Below are positions 2-18,289 of a stretch of DNA of 64,000 nt, in pieces (within the stretch, counting starts at the first letter, position 1; each line of letters begins with the position of its first letter). This DNA is from an uncultured virus (IMG/VR IMGVR_UViG_3300037508_000348). Taxonomy: Duplodnaviria > Heunggongvirae > Uroviricota > Caudoviricetes. Location: IMG/VR virus record IMGVR_UViG_3300037508_000348. The stretch is one strand, 5' to 3'. Below the pieces are notes generated by a model, which saw nothing but the letters and a program-made list of their open reading frames with translations, was not told where the DNA came from and made no database searches. The position numbers and the translations under genes are program-made.

Positions 2-3000
2 AAAGCGCTTGAGCGAATGCTCCAAGCAAAAACTCCAGCGGAAGCGGCTATTGCGCACCGTAAGTATTATGAGCGCCCCGGCGAAGCTGAAGCACGGGAT
101 GACAAACGTATCCAATATGCCAATCAGTTATTTTCTGGTGGGTATCAACCACAGCAAGAACAGGCTCAACCACAGGGGCAATTCGCTCGTAGCCCAGAGT
201 TCCAGCCTCATGTAGTCGGCGCTGGCGTAAGTAAACACCCTATTAGTCAGACTGATCCTCGCTTACAAAAAATTCTAAGCGTTGCTGCACAGAACTCTCC
301 TTTTGATGTGCAGTTCAAATCGGGCTACCGTCCCGGTGATAAGCGTCAGCACGGCAAACACAATGCTATCGACGTACAGCTTGTAGATAAGCGCACAGGA
401 GAGGCGTTCGCAGACTACCAAGACCCTCGGCATTTTAGAGATTATGAGCAGTTTGCACAAACTGCTAGGCAGGTGCAGGAACAATTATACCCCGAACTAG
501 GAGATGCTTTCCGTTGGGGTGGTTACTTCTCAGGTAAGAAAAACTATGGGGCGCTCGACCTCATGCACTTCGACATCGGGGGTGGTGAAGGTCTTGGAAT
601 GCGTGGTGGTTCTTGGGAAGGCGGTCTAAACGATCAACAACGCGCCCTTTGGAAAGGTGTTCAAAGTCAAGGCATGGGGCAACGCGCTCCTCAACTAGCT
701 TCAACTCAAGAATCCCCATACTACCCTGTTAGGCTCACTGATGGGCAGATATTCGACGTAGAGAAGGGCATGGGTCTGGATGAAGTAGATGCCATGTTAC
801 AGAAGAATGGTATCAATGCCCGCCCGCTACGCCCCTATACGGCTCCTGATGGTCGTCAGTTTGATGTCGAATATGATATGACTGATGACGAAATCATGGG
901 TATGCTGCAGAAAGCACCTCAACAGCCGGGGCAAGAGGAAGAGTCGAACTATCTAGGTGCGATGAAATACAACGCACAGCAGGCGCTTTCAGGCATAGCT
1001 CAGGGTGCGGGTACGGAGTTGGGTGAGCTAGGCAAAGCCGCTCAGGGTGCAGGGTTCCTTGGAGATTATGCTAAGCCTGTCAGTGAGTTTCTTACAGAAA
1101 AAGGAGCGCAGAGCCGCACCTATGGCGAGCAGCTAGGTAAAGACATCGAAGGCACCTACGAGCGCCCCAAGAACCTCAATGCTGTTGAGGAATACTTCTC
1201 CTATCCATTGGCTGAGACGGTGGGTGGTATCGCTCCTTATGTCGCTGCAGGCGGGCTATCTATGGTCCCCGGTGTCGGCGGTGTTCTTGGCCCTGCGGCT
1301 GTGGCTGGTGCTGTTCATGCAGGGGCTATGGGTGAGGGAGAACAACTGGCAAAGGCAGAAGGTAAAGAGTTTGTCCCTAGTGAGTATAGATTCCCCTATG
1401 CTGCGGCAGTCGACGCCGCCAATTTGGTTGGGTTGAATGTCCTTAACAAGGCACTCAAGGTTTTCGGCAAAGGAGCTATTCTGGGTTCCCGCGAAGCTAT
1501 CCAAGCTGCTGTAGAGAAAGGCGGTATAGAGGAAGCCAAGAAAGTAGTAGGCTCTCGTCTTAAAAATGTAGCGGGAGAGTTCCTAAAAGGCGAAGCAGCA
1601 TTGGTTAGCGGAGAGGTTATAGAAGATGCTATCAACCGTGAGTATCTAGGCAAACCCCTGCTGAGTGAAGAAGCGGGGCAGCAATACTTTGAGACTTTCA
1701 AACAGGTCGGTCCTCTCGGGTTAGTTACTGGCCCTATGGCTGGGCTGGGTACTCACTACAACAAAGCCATCGAAGTAGCACGGCTAGAAGAGCAGCAAGC
1801 TGTACAAGAAGCCCTTGCGCAACAAGAAGCGGAGCGTCAGAAGATTGGAGAGTTGCGTGATGTCGGCGTGTCTCCAGCGCAATTAGAGAAGTTCAAAGTT
1901 AAGAATGAGTTAGAAGGGCTCAGTGATGAAGATGCCCTTGCCGCCTACAAAGCAGACCAAGAAGCGATTGCCCAACGTAAAGCGGCTAAGATAGAAGAGC
2001 TTCCAGAAGAACTAAGGGACGTGCCTTACAAGGAAGCTAAGGTATATCAACAAATGCAGAAAGAACAAGCGGAGGTGCCTAGTGAAGAAGTATCTGGAGT
2101 ACCCGAAGAGCCTTCTGCTCCTGTTGAGCCTGTTAGTGGTGTTACCCCTCCTGCCGCTGAGATGGGTGCCGAAGAAATACCTGAGCCGTTTGTAAGAGGA
2201 AGAGCACAGGAAGTACAAGCGCCAGAACTCACAACACCAGAAGCACCAAAAGCACCGGAAGTAACAAACCCGGCAGACATCTTGGGCCTCAAGGCTAACT
2301 CTGGACTACGTAAACAACTGCAAAATCTGGATGTGAACAATGCTGCAGACCATCCAAAGATAGATGCCATACTGCAGAAGACTTCGGCTACGTTCTCCGC
2401 TGAGAATCTAGCTACCCTCGAAACCAAAATGAAGGAGGTACAGAATGCCAGCCAAGTCGAAGTCCCAAAACCGTCTGATGCAGGCCGTCGCCAACAGCCC
2501 CAAGGTGGCGAAGAAGTTGGGTATACCCCAGTCAGTGGGGAAGGAGTACGCATCAGCGACCAAGAAGGTAAAGGGATTACCGGAGAAGGTAAAGAAGGCC
2601 CGATAATCAAGGAAGTCAGAGGAGTAAGAGCACCGGAGATTGAAGTAGAGGGTGTAAAGCGCCCAACGACAGATAGCACGGGTGCTCCGATCCACACTAC
2701 TGAAGAAGGTGTGAAGAACTTCTGGAAAGGCTTTAAGGATACCAAGGTCGTTGATGCGGAAGGGCGACCACTTAAACTATATACAGGCACATCAAAAGAT
2801 GTAGATTTCACAAAGTTTAAGGCTCCCAAAAACGGGGTTTGGTTTACGCCAGATGCACAAGGGGCATCTCAGTACGCTATCGAAAACGATAGTATGGGTT
2901 ACACACAAGATGGATGGAAATTCATTCCTAAAAATACCGCCTCTCGCGTGATGCCTGTTTATGTAGCCCTTAAAAACCCTAAGCATTACGACAATATGGT

Positions 3001-6000
3001 AGATGCTATAGGGCAGGTGTCTAATTATAAAAAAGCGCAAGGGATTCTTTTTGATAGGCTAAAGGCAGAAGGGTATGATGGCGTTGTCTTTGGTGAAGGG
3101 GCCAGTGCTGTATACGTCGCTTTTTCCCCCAACCAAATCAAATCCGCTATCGGCAACAAAGGCGGGTTCGACGTAACTAAACCCGACATCAGAGAAGTCC
3201 AACCCGAAAGCCCCGATATTGGTAAGCTGCCTCTGGACGTAGCTAAATTCCAGACAGCTAAGAATGCACGGGAGCTACTGAACACCTTTTCTCAACACGG
3301 CACGGACGAGAACCTTCTGAAGAAGGCTAAGATTTTCCTAACCTCGCCTCATGCCGGAGCCGTGCGGACGCACTTTGTCTCTATGTCGGACCCTATGCCG
3401 CGAGATGTGCGGAATGCTTTTGAGAATAGAGGAGCGCTGGCTGCTACTTCTATCGGGCCAGACAAAGTAGAGATTTACTATCGCAAGGACAGCCCCGAAG
3501 CATTCAGCGAAGACAATGCGCTTCACGAAGTTACACATGCCCTAACCGAAGCTGGCCTGCAAAGGAATCCGGCGCTAAATACGGAGCTAAATTCTCTTGC
3601 TGGAACTATTGGCAAAGCCATAGAAAAGGATCATCCAGAAGCTGCAGCATTTTGGCGTGATGTTGTTAAAGAAGACGGTTCTGAAGCTCTTGCCTATGGA
3701 GCAACTTCTCCAACATTCAGGAAGATTCTTAGTCAGTACGATGAAAACGGCAATCGTATTCCAGAAGCGAAGCCGGAAATTCCCGTAGCCCAGAAACCGC
3801 GCACTCTGTGGGATAGGTTCAAGAGTTTTGTGGGTAAACTGTTTGGGGTGCCAGACAAGCAGAAAGAGAATTTCAGCAAAGCCGTAGATGAAGCACTGGC
3901 TAAAGGCACCACCCCCGTAGTAAAGCCTGTTTCGGCTAAGCTGGATGAAGCACTGGTGCAAGCCTTCAAAGACACGGCGAAGCGTGGGATCACCAAGCCT
4001 AAAGAAACCGTTGTAAAAGAAGTACGCGGTGAAACCCCCACACCCAAACCCTCCAAAGAAGAGCTAGCCGAAGCTGAGAAGCGTCTGAAAGACTCCGGTA
4101 TGGTCGGTGCTGTTAAAGACAGAACGCTGGGCACCAAGATGCGAGATGTTGTGAATGACATTTTTAAGGAAGGTAGGAACACTTCTTTTGTAGCGGAGGC
4201 TGTGGACATTAGGCAACCTATCTCCAAGGCTGTGCAGCCGTTGCCGGATATCATAGGTGAGAAGCTCAGGAGTGACTATATCTACAGCGCCTATGAGCAA
4301 CGGGGCAATGTCATTCAAGAGTCTTACCGTAAAGGCTTTGTCGCTATGGGCAGGGATGGCACGATTGAGGTTGTTAAGGACATCCAGCTTGCTTTGGCTG
4401 AAATCTTTAAGCGTGTGGGTGCCAAGAACCAAGAGATTTTCAGCAATGTGTTGGTAGCGCTTCGCGTCAGGACAATTAGAGCTCAGGATGCTGAGATCAG
4501 AGCGCAGGCCAACAAACTGCTTAATATGGCTGAGGAGATGCAGGACTATGCCAGTACCCTGAAGGATGCGGCTAAGCGTAAGAAGTTCAACGCGGCGGCT
4601 AGAAGCCTCACAAAGATAGCGGAGAAAAACCTAGAAAGAATCAACTGGGAAAAGGGCCGCACCGAGTATACAGATAAGGAAGTTAAAGATGCTGAGACTG
4701 TTATAGCAGGGCACCCAGAGCTTGCTCGTGAAGCCGAAAACGTCTATGCACTGCTGCGTAAGTCTGTTGATCTGTGGGAGAGTGAGGGGCTTGTAGATGC
4801 TGATAAAGCGAAGGAGTGGAAGGAATACCCCAACTATTTCCCTCTATATAAGGTAGCTGAGTATGATGAGCACATGGCAGACCCCTCCGAGCATATTGAT
4901 AGGTATGCTGACATGATGGGCAAGAGCCCGAAGAACCTTCCTACTGTACATGCTCAAGAACGGCACGCGCATCAGGTGTTTGTAGAAGACAACCTACTGC
5001 GACATATATCCTTTTTTGCTTCTGCGGCGGCGGAGCATTCAGCACGTAAGAACACGGCCTATAACCTTGAGATGGTAGGTAAGGCTGAGCGCATCAAGAA
5101 AGGCACCGAGAAGAAGGGCGAGCTTGTCGTTAAGTTCAGAGAGAATGGTAAGGACGTATTCTATAGAGTAGATGATGCTCCTGCGTACTATGCCATGCAG
5201 TCGGCCATGCCGTTGATGAGCCCTCTTCTGAAACGTATGCGCAGCGTGGGCAACTTCGCTCGCGGTGTGATGATTATGAACCCTCTGTTCTGGTATCGTC
5301 AGGCATTCCGTGAGCCTATTCAGGCCAGCCTCGTGGGTCGTGCGGGTGTCATCTCCACATTTGATACGTTGGGCGCTGTAAGCCGCATTGCTTCCGGTAG
5401 TGCTGTAGGTTATGAACGCCTGCGGGCTAAGGGCGTTATTGGTCCAGTGGATATCATTCCTGATCCTGCTGAGTTTATTAAAGTAGCTCAGAAAGGCAAG
5501 AGCATGGTGGCTAAGGGTCTGACGGGTATAAAGCATGTCCACGAAGCAATGGACGCTGCGACTCGTGTGGTGGTGTATGAAAAGGCTAAGGCTGACGCGC
5601 TCAGTAAGGGCTTCGATGAAGAGACGGCTGACGCTATTGGTGTGATGAAGGCACGAGAGATCATCAACTTCGCCAAACAAGGACGTAACAAGATGGTTCG
5701 GGCAGCGCGGGCTACTACTCCATTTTTCGGTGCAGCACTGAACAGTTTAGATGTTATGGCCCGTGCCGCCTTCCCCAGCAAGATAGGGCATCTGAGTAAA
5801 GCTGAGGCTATGGAGGCTAGGAGAAACTTCTACTCTACTGCATTCATGCTGGCTACGTTCTCTACGGCCTACGCTGCGGCTATGTCAGAGGATGAGGACT
5901 ATCTGAAAGAACCTGATCGTATAGGTAATTGGTTGATTCCTATCGGGGGTGGTAAGTTTATAAAAATTCCTATCCCGTTTGAAGCAGGGTGGTTTACCAA

Positions 6001-13150: not shown

Positions 13151-13434
13151 TTTTTCTTCTTGGGTGCGTCATAAGTCGCCGCTGGCTTGTGATTGCTGGA
13201 ACGCTTGAAGCTACGGTTTTCAGAAGGAGATGCTAGGAAAAAACCATCCTCATTACCCCCGCCTTTCGAGAGGTTCTTCTTATGAGCGATGTCCTTACCT
13301 TTGCGGTTTACCCCCTCCTTGTCCAGCTTCCTACGTAGTGTCTGACGGGCCAGCTTAGCCTTCAGCACACCCCCATCTTTCTCTTGGCGGGCTTTCTCGT
13401 TTTCCCAGTCTCTTCGATAATTTCTAGCCATCAC
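13147..13434 (-). CDS. Small HNH-like protein
   Basis: GKDIAHKKNLSKGGGN..ASPSENRS minimal HNH-like pattern. Confidence 0.6.
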   Translation of the reverse strand: MMARNYRRDWENEKARQEKDGGVLKAKLARQTLRRKLDKEGVNRKGKDIAHKKNLSKGGGNEDGFFLASPSENRSFKRSSNHKPAATYDAPKKKK

Positions 13435-14108
13435 AGACTCCCATTATGAGGACATGCTGTCCTACAGAAACGCTTGCAAAGCCCATTAGGTTTAGGATTC
13501 CACACGTTTGTATTATAAGCCATTTCTCTTTGCGTCAACAGCCCATGCAGGTCAGCAAAAATCTCGAATGCCTTATCACGAGTGTATTCTGACTTGATGA
13601 AATCGCCAGACACAACGAACAGCAGGCCCGCCTTAATCTTCTCTAGCTCGGGGTACTTGGCAAACAAACACGCTGCCATCAATGCTAACTGCCGTGGGTC
13701 TGCATACCGTGCATTCTTATTGGTCTTGTAGTCTACAAGCCATCCCTTGGGTCCATCGACAATAACAAGGTCAGCAACACCGCGAAACCAAACATCTCTA
13801 TCTTTGAAACCACAAGCAACAAATCTTCCATCTTCTTTTTTCAACCCTACCTGCAACTCACATATCTTTTCGCCGGGGATAGCGTTCAGCTTTTTCAAAT
13901 AAGGAAGCACAAACTCAAACCGGGGAGGGACAGGTTTGCCATCCCTTATGTACTCTTCACACGCCAGATGAAGCTCCTTGCCGTAGATCGTAGCGTCGCT
14001 ATCTGTGTACTTTACTTCCTTGGTAACTCTCTCGCTCTCGTACTTGCGATGGCAGGTGTCGAAGAGCTTGATGCTGCTGTAGCTCCATGCTGGCGGTGTT
14101 TTACTCAT
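13431..14108 (-). CDS. Cas4-like PD-(D/E)xK exonuclease
   Basis: WSYSSIKLFDTC, G.ELH, RGVADL, VDYKT, QL, C-terminal C..FC...CPH. Confidence 0.85.
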   Translation of the reverse strand: MSKTPPAWSYSSIKLFDTCHRKYESERVTKEVKYTDSDATIYGKELHLACEEYIRDGKPVPPRFEFVLPYLKKLNAIPGEKICELQVGLKKEDGRFVACGFKDRDVWFRGVADLVIVDGPKGWLVDYKTNKNARYADPRQLALMAACLFAKYPELEKIKAGLLFVVSGDFIKSEYTRDKAFEIFADLHGLLTQREMAYNTNVWNPKPNGLCKRFCRTACPHNGSL

Positions 14109-14488: not shown

Positions 14489-17313
14489 TTCTCCAGTTTC
14501 TTCATCTTAAATGACAAGTCCTCACCGTACCCCCCTTCAGCGTCCAGCGGCATGTTAGGTAGCCATGCTGGAGCCTTGCGTAGCTCAGTGATAATATCTA
14601 TCCGCGCTTGGTCTGCCTCTTCTGCACGGACGGCACAGTATAGCGCATCATGGATCGTAAGGCCAATAGGATACCGTTTGTGGACCCTGACCATCGCCTC
14701 ACCCATCACACACCTAGCCAAAGCCTGAATGATGTTCTGATAGCACTTGGCCGGATGTATGTGGACCAACCCTTTTCTCGTGCCATATACCCATTGTTTC
14801 CGGCCTTGCTCATCTTCGGTAATCTTGAGGTCGGGGTATGCCATAAACAGGCCGGAGGGTAAGCGAATGCCCCTCCTACCCAGCACATCCAACTTCAACT
14901 CCCCTAGCCCTATCGTGATGGCTTCATTATTTACGATAGCCTCAAGTGCTCTTCCTGCATCGTACCAAGCGGCTCTGACCTGCGAGTAATCTTTGCGGTA
15001 GATGTTTACCACGTTTTGAGAGAATTCTTCTCCAATATCCCTACCTGACAGCATCTTGCATTGGGCTCTTAGCTTCTTGGCTCCCGTGCCATAAATCAAC
15101 GCCAAGCAGTTAGAAACCAGCAAATTGTTCACAGTGAATCTATGCCTTGGCCCTGCATTTAGGATGTCATAGACTCTAACCTTTCTTTCAACCCTTTCCA
15201 GTTTTTTCTCTTGTGTGCTACTGCATCCCACGCTGTTTGTATTATCTCTTCGCCAGTCAATCCCTGTTTGGCATACTTCATAACAGTGCGTATCCGGGCG
15301 TAGGGGTTTTCTTTCCATTCGGATGCCAGAATTTTCTCTCCTTTCCATAGTATGTAGAACGTATTGCGCCGATTGCTGACTTGTTCCTTCTGCGTAGCAA
15401 AACGAAGATTGCCGCGAGTGTAGTGCCCCTCGTTGTCTATGCGATCCACAGATAAATGTATGGAACAATTTGGCAGCGTCTTCAAGTAGTCCACGCACTC
15501 TGCAATCGAATCGAACTCGAATCGAATCCCACGCCCCCCATAATTTTGGAATCCCTTGTCGCGCTCGTTTTTGCAGCGTTGGTACATGGCGTTTGCCCTC
15601 TTCTGCAGTCGCGCTGTTAACTTGTCCCCAACGTGCAAATGCCCCGCATTTTGATGGACTCTTCTTAATGCACATGGCTTGCAGGAACGTGATAATCCCC
15701 GATCTAATGACCCCTGATGCAGCCATTTCACCAAGCCGCAGTCGCAGCGCGCTTGGATCAGTAAGCACTGCCTCTTGCCACTCCTTCGTATTTCGGTGCT
15801 GATTATGGTCCACGCATTGAAGCGCTTTCCCTTCATCTCCGGTGACAATGATACGCGCTCTTTTGTCGGCGGCGAACCCGAACTCGCAGGACGTACCATC
15901 TTCCAGATAAACGATATGGTCTGATGTGGCTGTGAGTCCTTGATAGCTGATGACATTTCTTTCTCCCATGTATGCCACCCCGTCGTGGCAAACCCATTCT
16001 ACCCCATCCCATACTTTATCGTCCAACAAAATGTTTTGTATCGGGATGAGTCCCCTGTCGGTCAGCACTAACTCTCCTTCCGCGATACATGCTGTTTTGC
16101 CTACAAAGCGTTGGTCATCATCTACACTCTCATAGGCCACATCAAATGCCTTAGAAGCAAAATCCTTATATAGATCAAGCCCATCACCCAGCATCTCCAG
16201 CTTATCCATCTGCCCCGCAAAAGCCAGACCCACACGTAGCTCAATGTTCGATAAGTCAGCACCGACAATGCTGTACCCCATAGGAGCGATGATAGCTTTC
16301 TTTAGCTTTGACCCCCTTGGTATGTTCTGAAGGTTAATCGAATCAATGGCACTCCAGCGCCCCGTAATTGCACCGTAGTATTTCAGCGGTACGGGCAACG
16401 CACCACCTGCCTCATGGATTCTTATGAATCTCTCGGTTCTCGTCTCTTCGATGGTGCTCTTTACCCCAAGTCTAGCGGCTACAATCGCTTGAACAAAGAT
16501 GTTTTCATGCTCCAGCAACGCCTTGAACGCTTCATCCCTCTTGGCGAAAGCATAGGTTTCCTCACCTGTTGTCGGGCTTATTTTAGTCGGAGGCTCTACA
16601 CCAAAATTCTTTAAGACCTCAGCCAGCTTGGGGTTGCTCATCAGGTCATCTTTTACGATGCCGCATTCGTCCAGTAGCTGCTCCTTTCTTTGCCTTACAT
16701 TTTGCAGATGCTCCTCAAGAATGCCTCTGTCTAGCTCGAACTGCGGCATGGTGTGCATCTTGATCGTCATGTCGATCAACGCGATCTCGGTCTTGTCAAA
16801 AGATGAAGCCAGTTGTCGAAACAAATCATAAGTAAGGGCGACATCGTTTTTACAATACTCCCCATACCGAGCCAATTCCGCTTCACTAAAGTCTGCCCTA
16901 CGCTTACCCATAGCATCGACCACTTCAGTACCCTTCACCCCTAGGTTGTAGCGTTCAGCCAACTTAGCTAGCGAACCTCCAGCATCCACGCCGTGTACAG
17001 CACGGGCCATTGAAAGGGTGCAAAGCAGAAGTTTTGGGTATATTCCGAATTTCCACGCTAAGATCGTGGCATCAAATAGAGCATTATGCATCAGAGCAAA
17101 GGAGCTCTCCCAATCAAACTGCTTCAGCCAGTCTTTAGTCTCCTCATGAGTGCCGCTAAACCATTGTGGCTCTTCGCTATTTTTCTTTACTGATACACCG
17201 ATTACCTCAAACCTCTCATCGTCAATGTAGCTCTGAGTAGTTGTGTCTTTCTTGGATAGGGAATAGTCTTTACTCCACGCCGTTTCAAAGTCAATCGAAT
17301 ATACGTCCATCAC
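14485..17313 (-). CDS. Family A DNA polymerase precursor containing an intein (mature protein about 615 aa)
   Basis: Exo motifs DFET, HNALFD, YCKND; TGRWS, NLQNIPR; motif A DLSNIELR; motif B RFVGKTA|CLALIYG split by the intein; motif C TIHDA. Confidence 0.95.
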   Translation of the reverse strand: MMDVYSIDFETAWSKDYSLSKKDTTTQSYIDDERFEVIGVSVKKNSEEPQWFSGTHEETKDWLKQFDWESSFALMHNALFDATILAWKFGIYPKLLLCTLSMARAVHGVDAGGSLAKLAERYNLGVKGTEVVDAMGKRRADFSEAELARYGEYCKNDVALTYDLFRQLASSFDKTEIALIDMTIKMHTMPQFELDRGILEEHLQNVRQRKEQLLDECGIVKDDLMSNPKLAEVLKNFGVEPPTKISPTTGEETYAFAKRDEAFKALLEHENIFVQAIVAARLGVKSTIEETRTERFIRIHEAGGALPVPLKYYGAITGRWSAIDSINLQNIPRGSKLKKAIIAPMGYSIVGADLSNIELRVGLAFAGQMDKLEMLGDGLDLYKDFASKAFDVAYESVDDDQRFVGKTACIAEGELVLTDRGLIPIQNILLDDKVWDGVEWVCHDGVAYMGERNVISYQGLTATSDHIVYLEDGTSCEFGFAADKRARIIVTGDEGKALQCVDHNQHRNTKEWQEAVLTDPSALRLRLGEMAASGVIRSGIITFLQAMCIKKSPSKCGAFARWGQVNSATAEEGKRHVPTLQKRARQGIPKLWGAWDSIRVRFDCRVRGLLEDAAKLFHTFICGSHRQRGALHSRQSSFCYAEGTSQQSAQYVLHTMERRENSGIRMERKPLRPDTHCYEVCQTGIDWRRDNTNSVGCSSTQEKKLERVERKVRVYDILNAGPRHRFTVNNLLVSNCLALIYGTGAKKLRAQCKMLSGRDIGEEFSQNVVNIYRKDYSQVRAAWYDAGRALEAIVNNEAITIGLGELKLDVLGRRGIRLPSGLFMAYPDLKITEDEQGRKQWVYGTRKGLVHIHPAKCYQNIIQALARCVMGEAMVRVHKRYPIGLTIHDALYCAVRAEEADQARIDIITELRKAPAWLPNMPLDAEGGYGEDLSFKMKKLEK
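15109..16089 (-). mobile_element. Intein, 327 aa (residues 409-735 of the polymerase precursor)
   Basis: Block A CIAEGELVLTDRG, block B LTATSDHIVY, blocks F/G VYDILNAGPRHRFTVNNLLVSN, +1 Cys; removal restores motif B. Confidence 0.92.
15159..15956 (-). CDS. HNH homing endonuclease nested in the intein in a different reading frame
   Basis: ARCDCG..SCKPC..AMYQRC..NYGGRGI..SVDRIDNEGHYTRGNLRFATQKEQVSNRRN; GGAG SD 6 nt before ATG 15956 (alternative ATGs at 15899 and 15836). Confidence 0.88.
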   Translation of the reverse strand: MSSAIKDSQPHQTISFIWKMVRPASSGSPPTKERVSLSPEMKGKRFNAWTIISTEIRRSGKRQCLLIQARCDCGLVKWLHQGSLDRGLSRSCKPCALRRVHQNAGHLHVGDKLTARLQKRANAMYQRCKNERDKGFQNYGGRGIRFEFDSIAECVDYLKTLPNCSIHLSVDRIDNEGHYTRGNLRFATQKEQVSNRRNTFYILWKGEKILASEWKENPYARIRTVMKYAKQGLTGEEIIQTAWDAVAHKRKNWKGLKERLESMTS

Positions 17314-17611: not shown

Positions 17612-18289
17612 TTATACCCCTTTCCCCATCAGCACGTCCCATGACTCAGGGAAAAGCTCATCCATTATCAAACTGATTCTCTCCGCTACATCACGGGTTT
17701 CCTTCTGGGCGTGAGGGTCGAGGCGCAGGTTACACACCCTAGCGAAGAAATACAGGCTCCCTGTCCACACCCATGAAGTCTCGCTGCACACTGGCAATAT
17801 CGCCCGCGCTTGTTCAGCGCATACACCCATCAGCAGTAAATCCTCGTACAGCAGCCTAGTCCTTTTAGCCCAGTTGTCTATCTGCTCTTGCATAGAGGGG
17901 TCTATAACAACCAACTCATCACTACTCCCCTGCTTCACATTACTTGCAGCTTTTCTCCATCTGGTCGGGGTATCAAAGACTGGCGTGTACTTTACATATC
18001 TTCTGCTAACTTCGTTCTCTGTACCGCCAACCTTGTGCTTATAGAGTTGTGACCTGACGTACAGCGGGGCCGTGATGCGAAGGGATATTTGAGGATGACT
18101 GAAGGGGGTCCAATGGTTGTTCTCTGCTAGGTAGCGCAGGAGCTTTGCATCTTTGTTGTTCAGTACGTTTTTGACGGTGCCATCGGCGTCTTTCATCATG
18201 ACCCATTCTGATTTCTTATCGAATGACACTCGTGCGGCATCAATTACGCTTAGGTCTGATCCCATGTATTCAAGAAGTTCTACATTCAT
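17612..18289 (-). CDS. thyX: Flavin-dependent thymidylate synthase
   Basis: AARVSF, HWTPF, QLYKH..NEVSRRY, EQARAILP, LRLDPHAQKETR. Confidence 0.9.
   Translation of the reverse strand: MNVELLEYMGSDLSVIDAARVSFDKKSEWVMMKDADGTVKNVLNNKDAKLLRYLAENNHWTPFSHPQISLRITAPLYVRSQLYKHKVGGTENEVSRRYVKYTPVFDTPTRWRKAASNVKQGSSDELVVIDPSMQEQIDNWAKRTRLLYEDLLLMGVCAEQARAILPVCSETSWVWTGSLYFFARVCNLRLDPHAQKETRDVAERISLIMDELFPESWDVLMGKGV

Follow-up and report, generated by a model that had tools for sequence, protein, structure and literature searches.

Inteins whose endonuclease is encoded out of frame have been reported from other genes in preprints of the Gogarten laboratory from 2025-26 (bioRxiv 10.1101/2025.01.02.630785; 10.64898/2026.09.14.751524). 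The available part of the former describes inteins of actinophages in which LAGLIDADG or VSR-like endonucleases are encoded antisense, together with a same-strand endonuclease VII-like gene in "frame 3"; it proposes that inteins are invaded by free-standing endonuclease genes, notes that antisense cases have been known since 1998, and calls the out-of-frame forms rare and perhaps drifting into frame. The latter, in the part available, describes a dnaX intein. Two further arrangements are related, as far as the accessible sections of the respective papers go, namely ShiLan, where an HNH endonuclease encoded out of frame is hidden inside a phage methylase gene (PMC11855218), and fractured genes, where a free-standing endonuclease gene lies between the halves of a split intein (Dassa et al. 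2009, PMC2677866). Here we analyze a 64,000-nucleotide (nt) record of an uncultured virus of the class Caudoviricetes (IMG/VR IMGVR_UViG_3300037508_000348), the whole of which is referred to below as the window. In this window, an intein interrupts the gene for a family A DNA polymerase, and an open reading frame (ORF) for an HNH-like protein is nested, in another frame of the same strand, within the intein (Table 1). Taken as a whole, the element is, in our judgment, quite probably a mobile intein in which a homing-endonuclease-like gene is nested and separately translated; selection on the dual-coding layout appears nearly certain, and a homing-nuclease function of the nested protein is moderately likely.

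The arrangement is known in kind from the 2025-26 literature and hence is not unprecedented. As in the same-strand actinophage case, the endonuclease region is open and unstructured in the intein frame, and a nuclease ORF occupies another frame of the same strand. In the available part of that preprint (10.1101/2025.01.02.630785), however, the nuclease is endonuclease VII-like and read in frame 3, the phages are actinophages, and the pol III alpha subunit is the sole polymerase among the hosts listed, whereas the nuclease described here combines a zinc ribbon with a DRID...Y...N core, is mostly found in the +1 frame, resides in motif B of a family A polymerase, and occurs in environmental, Streptococcus, and Gardnerella phages. 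The setting of the second preprint (10.64898/2026.09.14.751524), in its accessible part, is a cellular gene, dnaX, rather than a phage polymerase. ShiLan shares with the window an HNH-type gene overprinted on an open host ORF and an internal start, which is putative here, but is described in the sections seen as having no detectable splicing domains, whereas a complete HINT domain flanks the present element (PMC11855218). Unlike the fractured genes, as these are presented in the part of the paper available (PMC2677866), the window has a contiguous intein and a polymerase encoded by one ORF, and its nuclease family is not VSR-like. No family A polymerase intein with a zinc-ribbon DRID...Y...N nuclease was found in the literature within the terms and library searched. 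What is added here is a codon rule, an embedded start signal, a family with no in-frame member, an exact intein-less allele, and a pattern of Arg in place of His accompanied by an invariant Tyr.

The polymerase ORF matches PF00476 (3e-21) and PF01612 (3.2e-9) in Pfam and phrog_17 (9.6e-73) in PHROG, and its first PF00476 stretch ends at residue 408, directly ahead of the intein. The extein sequences flanking the insertion, ...QRFVGKTA upstream and CLALIYGTG... downstream, yield upon joining what we take to be polymerase motif B, with the pattern R-x-x-x-K...Y-G. Within the intein, the motifs CIAEG...TATSDH...VYDI...VSN|C follow one another in order, and the class-1 features are present, namely Cys1, the block B T-x-x-H, the block F Asp, the terminal Asn, and Cys+1. 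In an alignment of 42 inteins (A3), C1, T55, H58, D308, G313, P314, and N327 are invariant; the first C-extein residue is Cys at most loci and Ser or Thr at a few. AlphaFold2 (AF2) modeling based on a 42-sequence alignment gave a predicted local distance difference test score (pLDDT) of 95-98 for residues 1-80 and of 95-96 for residues 301-327. In Foldseek searches, these confident ends matched only inteins and HINT domains, including NpuDnaE, Ssp DnaE, DnaB, gp41-1, RecA, and the hedgehog HINT domain, with the NpuDnaE intein (4kl5_A) as the best match (E 1.0e-3; probability 1.00; root mean square deviation [rmsd] 2.4 Å over 99 columns; target-normalized TM score 0.53). The only PHROG match to the N-terminal part was to phrog_26005, a family of unknown function (5.9e-9). 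An earlier reading of the window, made from the sequence alone, had proposed an intein of this length in motif B, and its coordinates and splicing blocks were reproduced. The same reading found no recognizable endonuclease in the middle of the intein frame, and this holds: the middle matched no Pfam, PHROG, or NCBIfam family, and its pLDDT of 33-61 gives no predicted fold that would make it a domain in its own right. The models thus support the view that the middle of the intein frame is merely the shadow frame of the nested gene and would form an unstructured tether.

The nested ORF is offset by +1 relative to the polymerase (17313-15956 = 1357, remainder 1 on division by 3), and both frames are open. 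In the window, the nuclease-homologous stretch of 225 codons is free of stops in the intein frame, whereas shuffling synonymous codons of the nuclease frame introduced a mean of 8.3 stops, with none of 2000 shuffles being stop-free; the third frame contains 16 stops in the window and 10.7 on average over the loci tested. The sequence-only reading had put the probability of 220 stop-free codons arising by chance (3/64 per codon) at about 1e-4 to 1e-5, which is of the right order. The test was extended to 47 distinct loci in which the nuclease-homologous stretch spans at least 120 codons and is stop-free in the nuclease frame. The intein frame was stop-free in all 47, against a mean of 6.3 stops in the shuffles. 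With the gene in the +1 frame, a stop in the intein frame requires a T-ending nuclease codon followed by a codon starting with AA, AG, or GA. Across 39 loci, 0 of 1944 codons preceding AA, AG, or GA end in T, compared with 1136 of 5197 preceding other codons, and the window alone gives 0/64 and 36/160, respectively. By contrast, the equivalent frame of five free-standing relatives contains 5, 12, 24, 27, and 27 stops, counts from which two stretches that proved nested (L037 4199-4630 and L056 16-471) are excluded; in the pooled control tally, which covers all seven stretches including these two, T is the last base of 25% of the codons that precede AA, AG, or GA. Codon choice in the nuclease frame has thus purged the intein frame of stops.

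Substitution patterns distinguish the two frames as well. The mean pairwise difference at codon positions 1/2/3 was 0.481/0.432/0.633 for the nuclease frame in the center of the element and 0.322/0.249/0.615 (N-terminal) and 0.280/0.225/0.645 (C-terminal) for the intein frame in the splicing blocks. Accordingly, variability peaks at the third position of the nuclease frame in the center and at the third position of the intein frame in the splicing blocks, and within the center it is lowest at the third position of the intein frame. Over the same central columns, amino acid identity is 39.6% in the nuclease frame versus 21.0% in the intein frame. Among eight pairs of loci at 70-98.5% nt identity, the only range used, one of which was saturated, the ratio of nonsynonymous to synonymous substitution rates (dN/dS, NG86) in the seven finite pairs was 0.07-0.12 (median 0.09) for the nuclease frame and 1.0-3.3 (median 2.2) for the intein frame; overlapping frames bias such estimates and the pairs lack independence, but the contrast is still large and consistent. 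Purifying selection thus acts on the nuclease frame and not on the middle of the intein frame. The proposal, made in the sequence-only reading, of a dual-coding element in which stops were purged from the intein frame is supported by the codon signature, by the dN/dS contrast, and by the maintenance of the start signal described below.

Searches with the nested protein using tblastn identified relatives in 759 phage records, and the seven best matches (~35% identity, 98-99% coverage), from Streptococcus Javan-type phages and Gardnerella phage AB1, all lie inside genes annotated as "DNA polymerase (I)." At both phage loci that were opened, an intact homologous ORF lies at +1 within a polymerase-intein ORF that is itself open. 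In GenBank, Streptococcus phage Javan113 (L001 979-3876) and Gardnerella phage vB_Gva_AB1 (L002 979-3882) are annotated at these loci with DNA polymerase (I) only, and their nested ORFs, of 257 and 267 amino acids (aa), respectively, are unannotated. A search with the intein region returned 1028 proteins. Scanning of viral-contig DNA with the nested ORF as a single protein revealed no relative; the alignment-based scan, restricted to two splicing-block peptide patterns, succeeded and yielded 402 confirmed stretches, from which 79 loci were kept. Together with the two phage loci and the window, these make up a survey of 82 sequences, of which 4 ran off their locus, leaving 78 sequences with a whole intein, 64 of them distinct at the DNA level. 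The nuclease homologue is in the +1 frame in 56 of the 78 sequences (47 of the 64 distinct) and in the +2 frame in 8 (8 distinct); 12 sequences (8 distinct) are mini-inteins of 133-150 aa with no nuclease homologue, and in 2 (1 distinct), the N- and C-terminal blocks are split between different frames. The homologue is in frame with the intein in none of the 78 sequences, that is, in 0/64 distinct inteins, even though nuclease identity within the family falls to ~27%. This result contrasts with the suggestion, in the available part of 10.1101/2025.01.02.630785, that out-of-frame forms may drift into frame. To the idea that the layout is an error of sequencing or assembly in an ordinary intein with an in-frame HNH domain, in favor of which no evidence was found, we assign a negligible probability: the +1 offset recurs in 47 distinct inteins from independent metagenomes and isolate phage genomes, both frames are open and carry the codon-choice signature, and contigs from other runs show no net frame change, with only two of the indels listed lying inside the intein and canceling each other within 4 nt. 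To the extent that sequences can tell, a sequencing frameshift, dismissed already in the sequence-only reading, is therefore refuted.

The survey also captured stages of gene loss and rearrangement. The +1 class includes five inteins of 171-187 aa that retain a remnant of the gene only, and at L009, L010, and L063, the nuclease frame contains one stop while the intein frame is still open. Two relatives, L075 and L079, are fractured genes consisting of three overlapping ORFs in three frames and share the split arrangement of Dassa et al. 2009, as it appears in the part of that paper available (PMC2677866); at L075, and in the same way at L079, these ORFs encode the N-terminal parts of polymerase and intein (1090-2790), the nuclease (2408-3253), and the C-terminal parts of intein and polymerase (3009-3863), and the former intein frame contains 13 stops. 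At L071, an extra nuclease homologue (1029-1595) is found upstream of the intein, within a polymerase-matching stretch; because the other two frames contain 24 and 6 stops, no open host frame encloses this copy, and it may be free-standing or intron-borne.

The start of the nested gene is marked by a conserved signal. In the window, a GGAG motif precedes the ATG by 6 nt within the intein codons M-G-E-R-N, and the ORF stops inside block F, a configuration that the sequence-only reading had pointed out and that can be read directly from the sequence. In 39 of 42 distinct +1 loci, an ATG occupies either of two fixed sites within the block B region. Nine of these loci, including the window, have the form GGA GAA ARA NAT GTC, and 30 have the form GAG GTN nnn nnn TAT G, in which GAGGT is followed, after nine bases, by an ATG across a Tyr codon. 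This Tyr codon is TAT in 28/29 loci, compared with 34% in the exteins (binomial p 2e-12), and the Glu codon at the start site is GAG in 26/28 loci, compared with an extein background of 61% (p 1.6e-4), although both p-values take related loci as independent. The Tyr-codon ATG was found in 0/8 loci of the +2 class. The distinct mini-inteins, which have the Tyr-codon ATG in 4/8 and the other ATG in 4/8, did not serve as a control for the start signal, probably owing to their descent from full forms. The biased synonymous codons are consistent with selection for internal start signals. Downstream of the first ATG, homology to free-standing relatives begins at a second in-frame ATG, Met41, an alternative start; the aligned codon is ATG in 19/39 loci, TTG in 5/39, and not a start codon in 15/39, and Met41 is therefore not the general start.

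Alternatively, programmed ribosomal frameshifting might produce a fusion of N-extein, N-intein, and nuclease. Such a mechanism would be compatible with the location of both genes on one mRNA and strand and with the nested frame being open upstream of the ATG (from locus position 2816, versus the ATG at 2858). However, it leaves unaccounted for the ATG and Shine-Dalgarno-like motif at fixed places and the TAT and GAG preferences; it would require opposite shifts in the 47 distinct +1 and 8 distinct +2 inteins; and in the split locus L075, the nuclease is encoded by an ORF of its own. We therefore consider frameshifting quite unlikely. Because the ATG and the Shine-Dalgarno-like motif are conserved and coupled to biased codons, internal initiation is favored as the likely mode of translation of the nested gene.

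The mobility of the element was assessed by comparing contigs from four metagenome runs over positions 14700-16500. Two of the runs, which belong to different studies, yielded two types of intein-less contigs: one connects 15096 with 16097 through 19 other letters, and the second connects 15098 with 16133 through 53 letters, so that each is shorter by a net 981 nt, exactly the intein length. Among the intein-less contigs, one agrees with the window at all but 6 of 293 flanking bases (98% flank identity); the first joint has a side of just 30 letters, and the second has sides of 93 and 176. Translated by hand, the 19 replacing letters and the adjoining codons read K-T-A-S-L-S-L-I-Y-G, a motif B of unchanged length that nothing interrupts, in which Ser takes the position of the window's Cys+1. 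In P0087, a 723-aa polymerase of the same lineage with the same insertion site (65% N-extein identity; found on 10 contigs, the longest of 64,933 bases), the intein is reduced to ~108 aa through deletion of everything between ...CEFG and RVYD..., including the nested gene (compared with residues 409-735 in the window). The existence of intein-less, mini, and full alleles implies that the middle is dispensable for the polymerase. Contigs of runs X9 and X10 have one additional base after 15376 and lack one base at 15380, changes that compensate each other, with both frames restored after one or two codons.

The same decay invites the view that the window copy itself is a decaying relic, a mini-intein with a junk tether whose +1 ORF is intact because it has not yet been hit. 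Stops at L009, L010, and L063, the five remnants, the twelve mini-inteins, and the loss of the middle in P0087 all attest that this fate is real within the family. The window ORF, however, is full length, retains all residues that are invariant among its homologues (alignment A2), keeps its GGAG and ATG, and yields a model of high confidence, and lake-water metagenomes from several studies contain nearly identical DNA. A relic therefore seems improbable.

Homologous inteins are inserted in motif B at four neighboring positions or more (K+1, K+2, K+5, and K+6), and the occupancy of several polymerase sites and of a helicase, as far as sequences tell, fits active mobility. Insertion in an apparent motif A (D-x-S-Q-I-E|C) was seen at L021 and L049. 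At L037, the polymerase ORF at 1375-5037 contains a second intein at ~4031-4735 (...IYGGLL|CLGAKT...IVHN|CENIV...) with its own +1 nuclease gene. At L056 (1-1220), a gene upstream of the polymerase, helicase-like by eye from its translation, carries a related intein that is represented by its C-terminal end (...IVHN|SGAVYD...), its start being cut off by the end of the locus, again with a +1 nuclease gene. Both of these nested genes leave 0 stops in the host frame. The protein P0021, with helicase Pfam domains, matches 99% of the intein query region.

The sequence-only reading described the nested product as an intact-looking HNH endonuclease. That description goes too far: the ORF is full length, matches the PHROG "HNH endonuclease" families phrog_374 (2.8e-26) and phrog_3377 (2.6e-23), and gives an AF2 model with a mean pLDDT of 91.9 (37-sequence alignment), but there is no Pfam HNH match, and an invariant Arg stands in place of the catalytic His. 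From its sequence, the protein is best described as HNH-like, its identity as an HNH enzyme going beyond the evidence. In alignment A2 of 37 sequences, C71 of a four-Cys zinc-ribbon-like motif does not vary, whereas C73 and C92 are each shared by at least 90% of the sequences, and in the nuclease-like core, G143, F148, R172, Y179, and N183 are invariant, Y179 being located between D171-R172 and N183. A weak profile match (E 0.4) sets this core on the D-H...N...N motif of I-HmuI, and D171 and N195, kept in at least 90% of the sequences, would be the metal-ligand Asp and Asn and N183 the conserved Asn of the motif, a placement that depends on this weak alignment. A sequence profile search of solved structures gave chance-level rows besides I-HmuI and PacI (E 1.5). 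Among 48,161 structure chains, the best match to model residues 107-199 was the restriction enzyme PacI (3m7k_A; Z 5.8, rmsd 2.9 Å over 80 residues), which is modest by the standards of the tool (rank 2 Z 4.7), and sub-threshold Foldseek rows included Gme HNH (4h9d; E 0.15) and PacI (3ldy; E 1.3). According to the part of the literature available (PMC5714182), PacI has no catalytic His, a loop tyrosine taking over that role. PacI (3m7k/3ldy) and the nested protein, which have no significant sequence similarity, are thus alike in having zinc-bound Cys motifs (putatively so in the latter), no catalytic His, and a conserved loop Tyr, and by this analogy the invariant Tyr suggests a PacI-like active site; PacI itself, however, serves in restriction and not in homing. 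In a protein atlas, the nested protein falls among unnamed viral clusters, and the nearest named clusters, a lead only, are labeled I-HmuI_NUMOD-like or NUMOD1 on a minority of their members.

Several observations weigh against the reading of the element as a mobile intein with a translated nuclease gene. For the nuclease, the invariant R172 stands opposite the catalytic His of I-HmuI in the weak match, and the general-base His at the end of the first strand is not present, its place being taken by Arg; Pfam has no HNH family match at E up to 1, Foldseek with the whole model returned nothing at E up to 1e-3, and the PacI similarity is, as stated, modest. For the intein, no Pfam or NCBIfam intein model matched at E up to 1, and no relevant NCBIfam family was found for either frame. 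For translation from the first ATG, the ~40 codons at the 5' end of the nested ORF that overlap the HINT domain impose no added constraint on the third position of the intein frame (0.612, compared with 0.626 upstream), and the codons ahead of Met41 may be a passive leader. AF2 nevertheless predicts strands at nested residues 16-22 and 31-37 (pLDDT 81-94) within this segment (residues 1-40, 15836-15956). Finally, no RNA runs containing the stretch were listed, the surveyed loci are mutually related and their counts do not represent independent events, and in addition to the bias and nonindependence noted above, the dN/dS pairs exclude the window, for which no relative at 70-98.5% nt identity was among those fetched.

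Some of these points lend weight to the possibility that the layout is real but the nested protein has ceased to act as a nuclease, having become a DNA-binding or otherwise co-opted protein in an intein that persists by vertical descent and occasional recombination instead of homing. R172 at the catalytic position and the missing Pfam match would be expected in that case, and His-Me-finger groups in which neither the His nor a Tyr equivalent to it is present are considered inactive, according to the section of PMC5714182 seen. Y179, however, is invariant in the interstrand loop, and the best structural match is PacI, in which, in the same source, a loop Tyr replaces the His; D171, N183, and N195 are retained, purifying selection on the nuclease frame is strong, and the element shows exact presence/absence alleles at 98% flank identity as well as occupancy of several polymerase sites and a helicase. 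On balance, loss of nuclease activity is unlikely, and a mobile intein with a nested homing-endonuclease-like gene is the preferred reading.

Under this preferred reading, the polymerase mRNA would be read through the intein frame, and the two HINT subdomains (~88 + 27 residues) would fold around an unstructured tether of ~210 residues; class-1 protein splicing would then remove all 327 residues and restore motif B. Ribosomes starting at the internal GGAG and ATG of the same mRNA would produce the 265-aa protein, predicted to consist of the zinc ribbon, the His-Me-finger-like core, and helical DNA-binding tail modules. This protein would cut intein-less polymerase alleles of co-infecting phages, and repair would copy the intein and the gene together. 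The polymerase frame is kept open cheaply, by having no T-ending nuclease codon before an AA, AG, or GA codon. We tentatively entertain the idea, to which we give slightly less than even odds, that for the combination of a HINT domain with a zinc-ribbon, Tyr-type His-Me-finger nuclease, out-of-frame nesting is a stable end state and not a passing intermediate. On this view, the nesting has persisted down to ~27% nuclease identity without a move into frame and has spread to several polymerase sites and to helicases, with conserved codons of the intein doubling as ribosome-binding site and start codon of the nested gene; a possible reason is that the HINT loop can take up an unstructured tether but not an elongated multidomain nuclease in folded form.

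The neighboring genes form a phage-type replication module, with a PD-(D/E)XK nuclease at 13431-14108 and ThyX at 17612-18289. No second copy of the intein or of the nested gene was found elsewhere within the window, and megablast of the polymerase against phage records gave no match.

Table 1. Features of the polymerase, intein, and nested gene, in coordinates of the window
Feature	Position	Strand	Remarks
Family A DNA polymerase precursor ORF, 942 aa	14485..17313	(-)	3'-5' exonuclease and polymerase domains, interrupted by the intein
Intein, 327 aa / 981 nt	15109..16089	(-)	In the motif B coding region, GKTA|C...N|CLALIYG
N-terminal HINT subdomain, residues 1 to ~88	15826..16089	(-)	Blocks A and B; AF2 and Foldseek
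Intein-frame linker, residues ~89-300	15190..15825	(-)	Stop-free shadow frame; no predicted fold
C-terminal HINT subdomain, residues ~301-327	15109..15189	(-)	Blocks F and G; ends VSN, then Cys+1
Nested ORF, 265 aa	15159..15956	(-)	+1 frame of the intein; HNH-like (His-Me-finger-like) homing-endonuclease candidate
GGAG Shine-Dalgarno-like motif	15963..15966	(-)	6 nt before the nested ATG; from intein Gly-Glu codons
Nested ATG start	15954..15956	(-)	Spans intein Asn-Val codons, within M-G-E-R-N
Second in-frame ATG, Met41 (MKGKRF...)	15834..15836	(-)	Start of homology to free-standing relatives; alternative start
Four-Cys zinc-ribbon-like motif, C71, C73, C92, C95	15672..15746	(-)	Alignment A2
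Nuclease-like core, YGGRGI...D171-R172-I-D...Y179...N183-L-R...N195	15360..15542	(-)	Alignment A2
Nested TAA stop	15159..15161	(-)	Inside block F codons D-I-L-N

These results have consequences for both annotation and evolution. The nested gene escapes gene callers, which assign the entire ORF to "DNA polymerase I," and the intein and HNH profile libraries miss both parts. The codon rule is simple and checkable, and it shows how a long second frame can stay open while costing the first next to nothing. A single family spans the intein-less allele, the mini-intein, the nested gene in the +1 or +2 frame, the decaying gene, and the split, fractured gene, and supports the view of intein origins in which splicing came first and the endonuclease invaded later. 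If the nested proteins are active with Tyr in place of His, they would make up a large phage group of unusual His-Me-finger enzymes.

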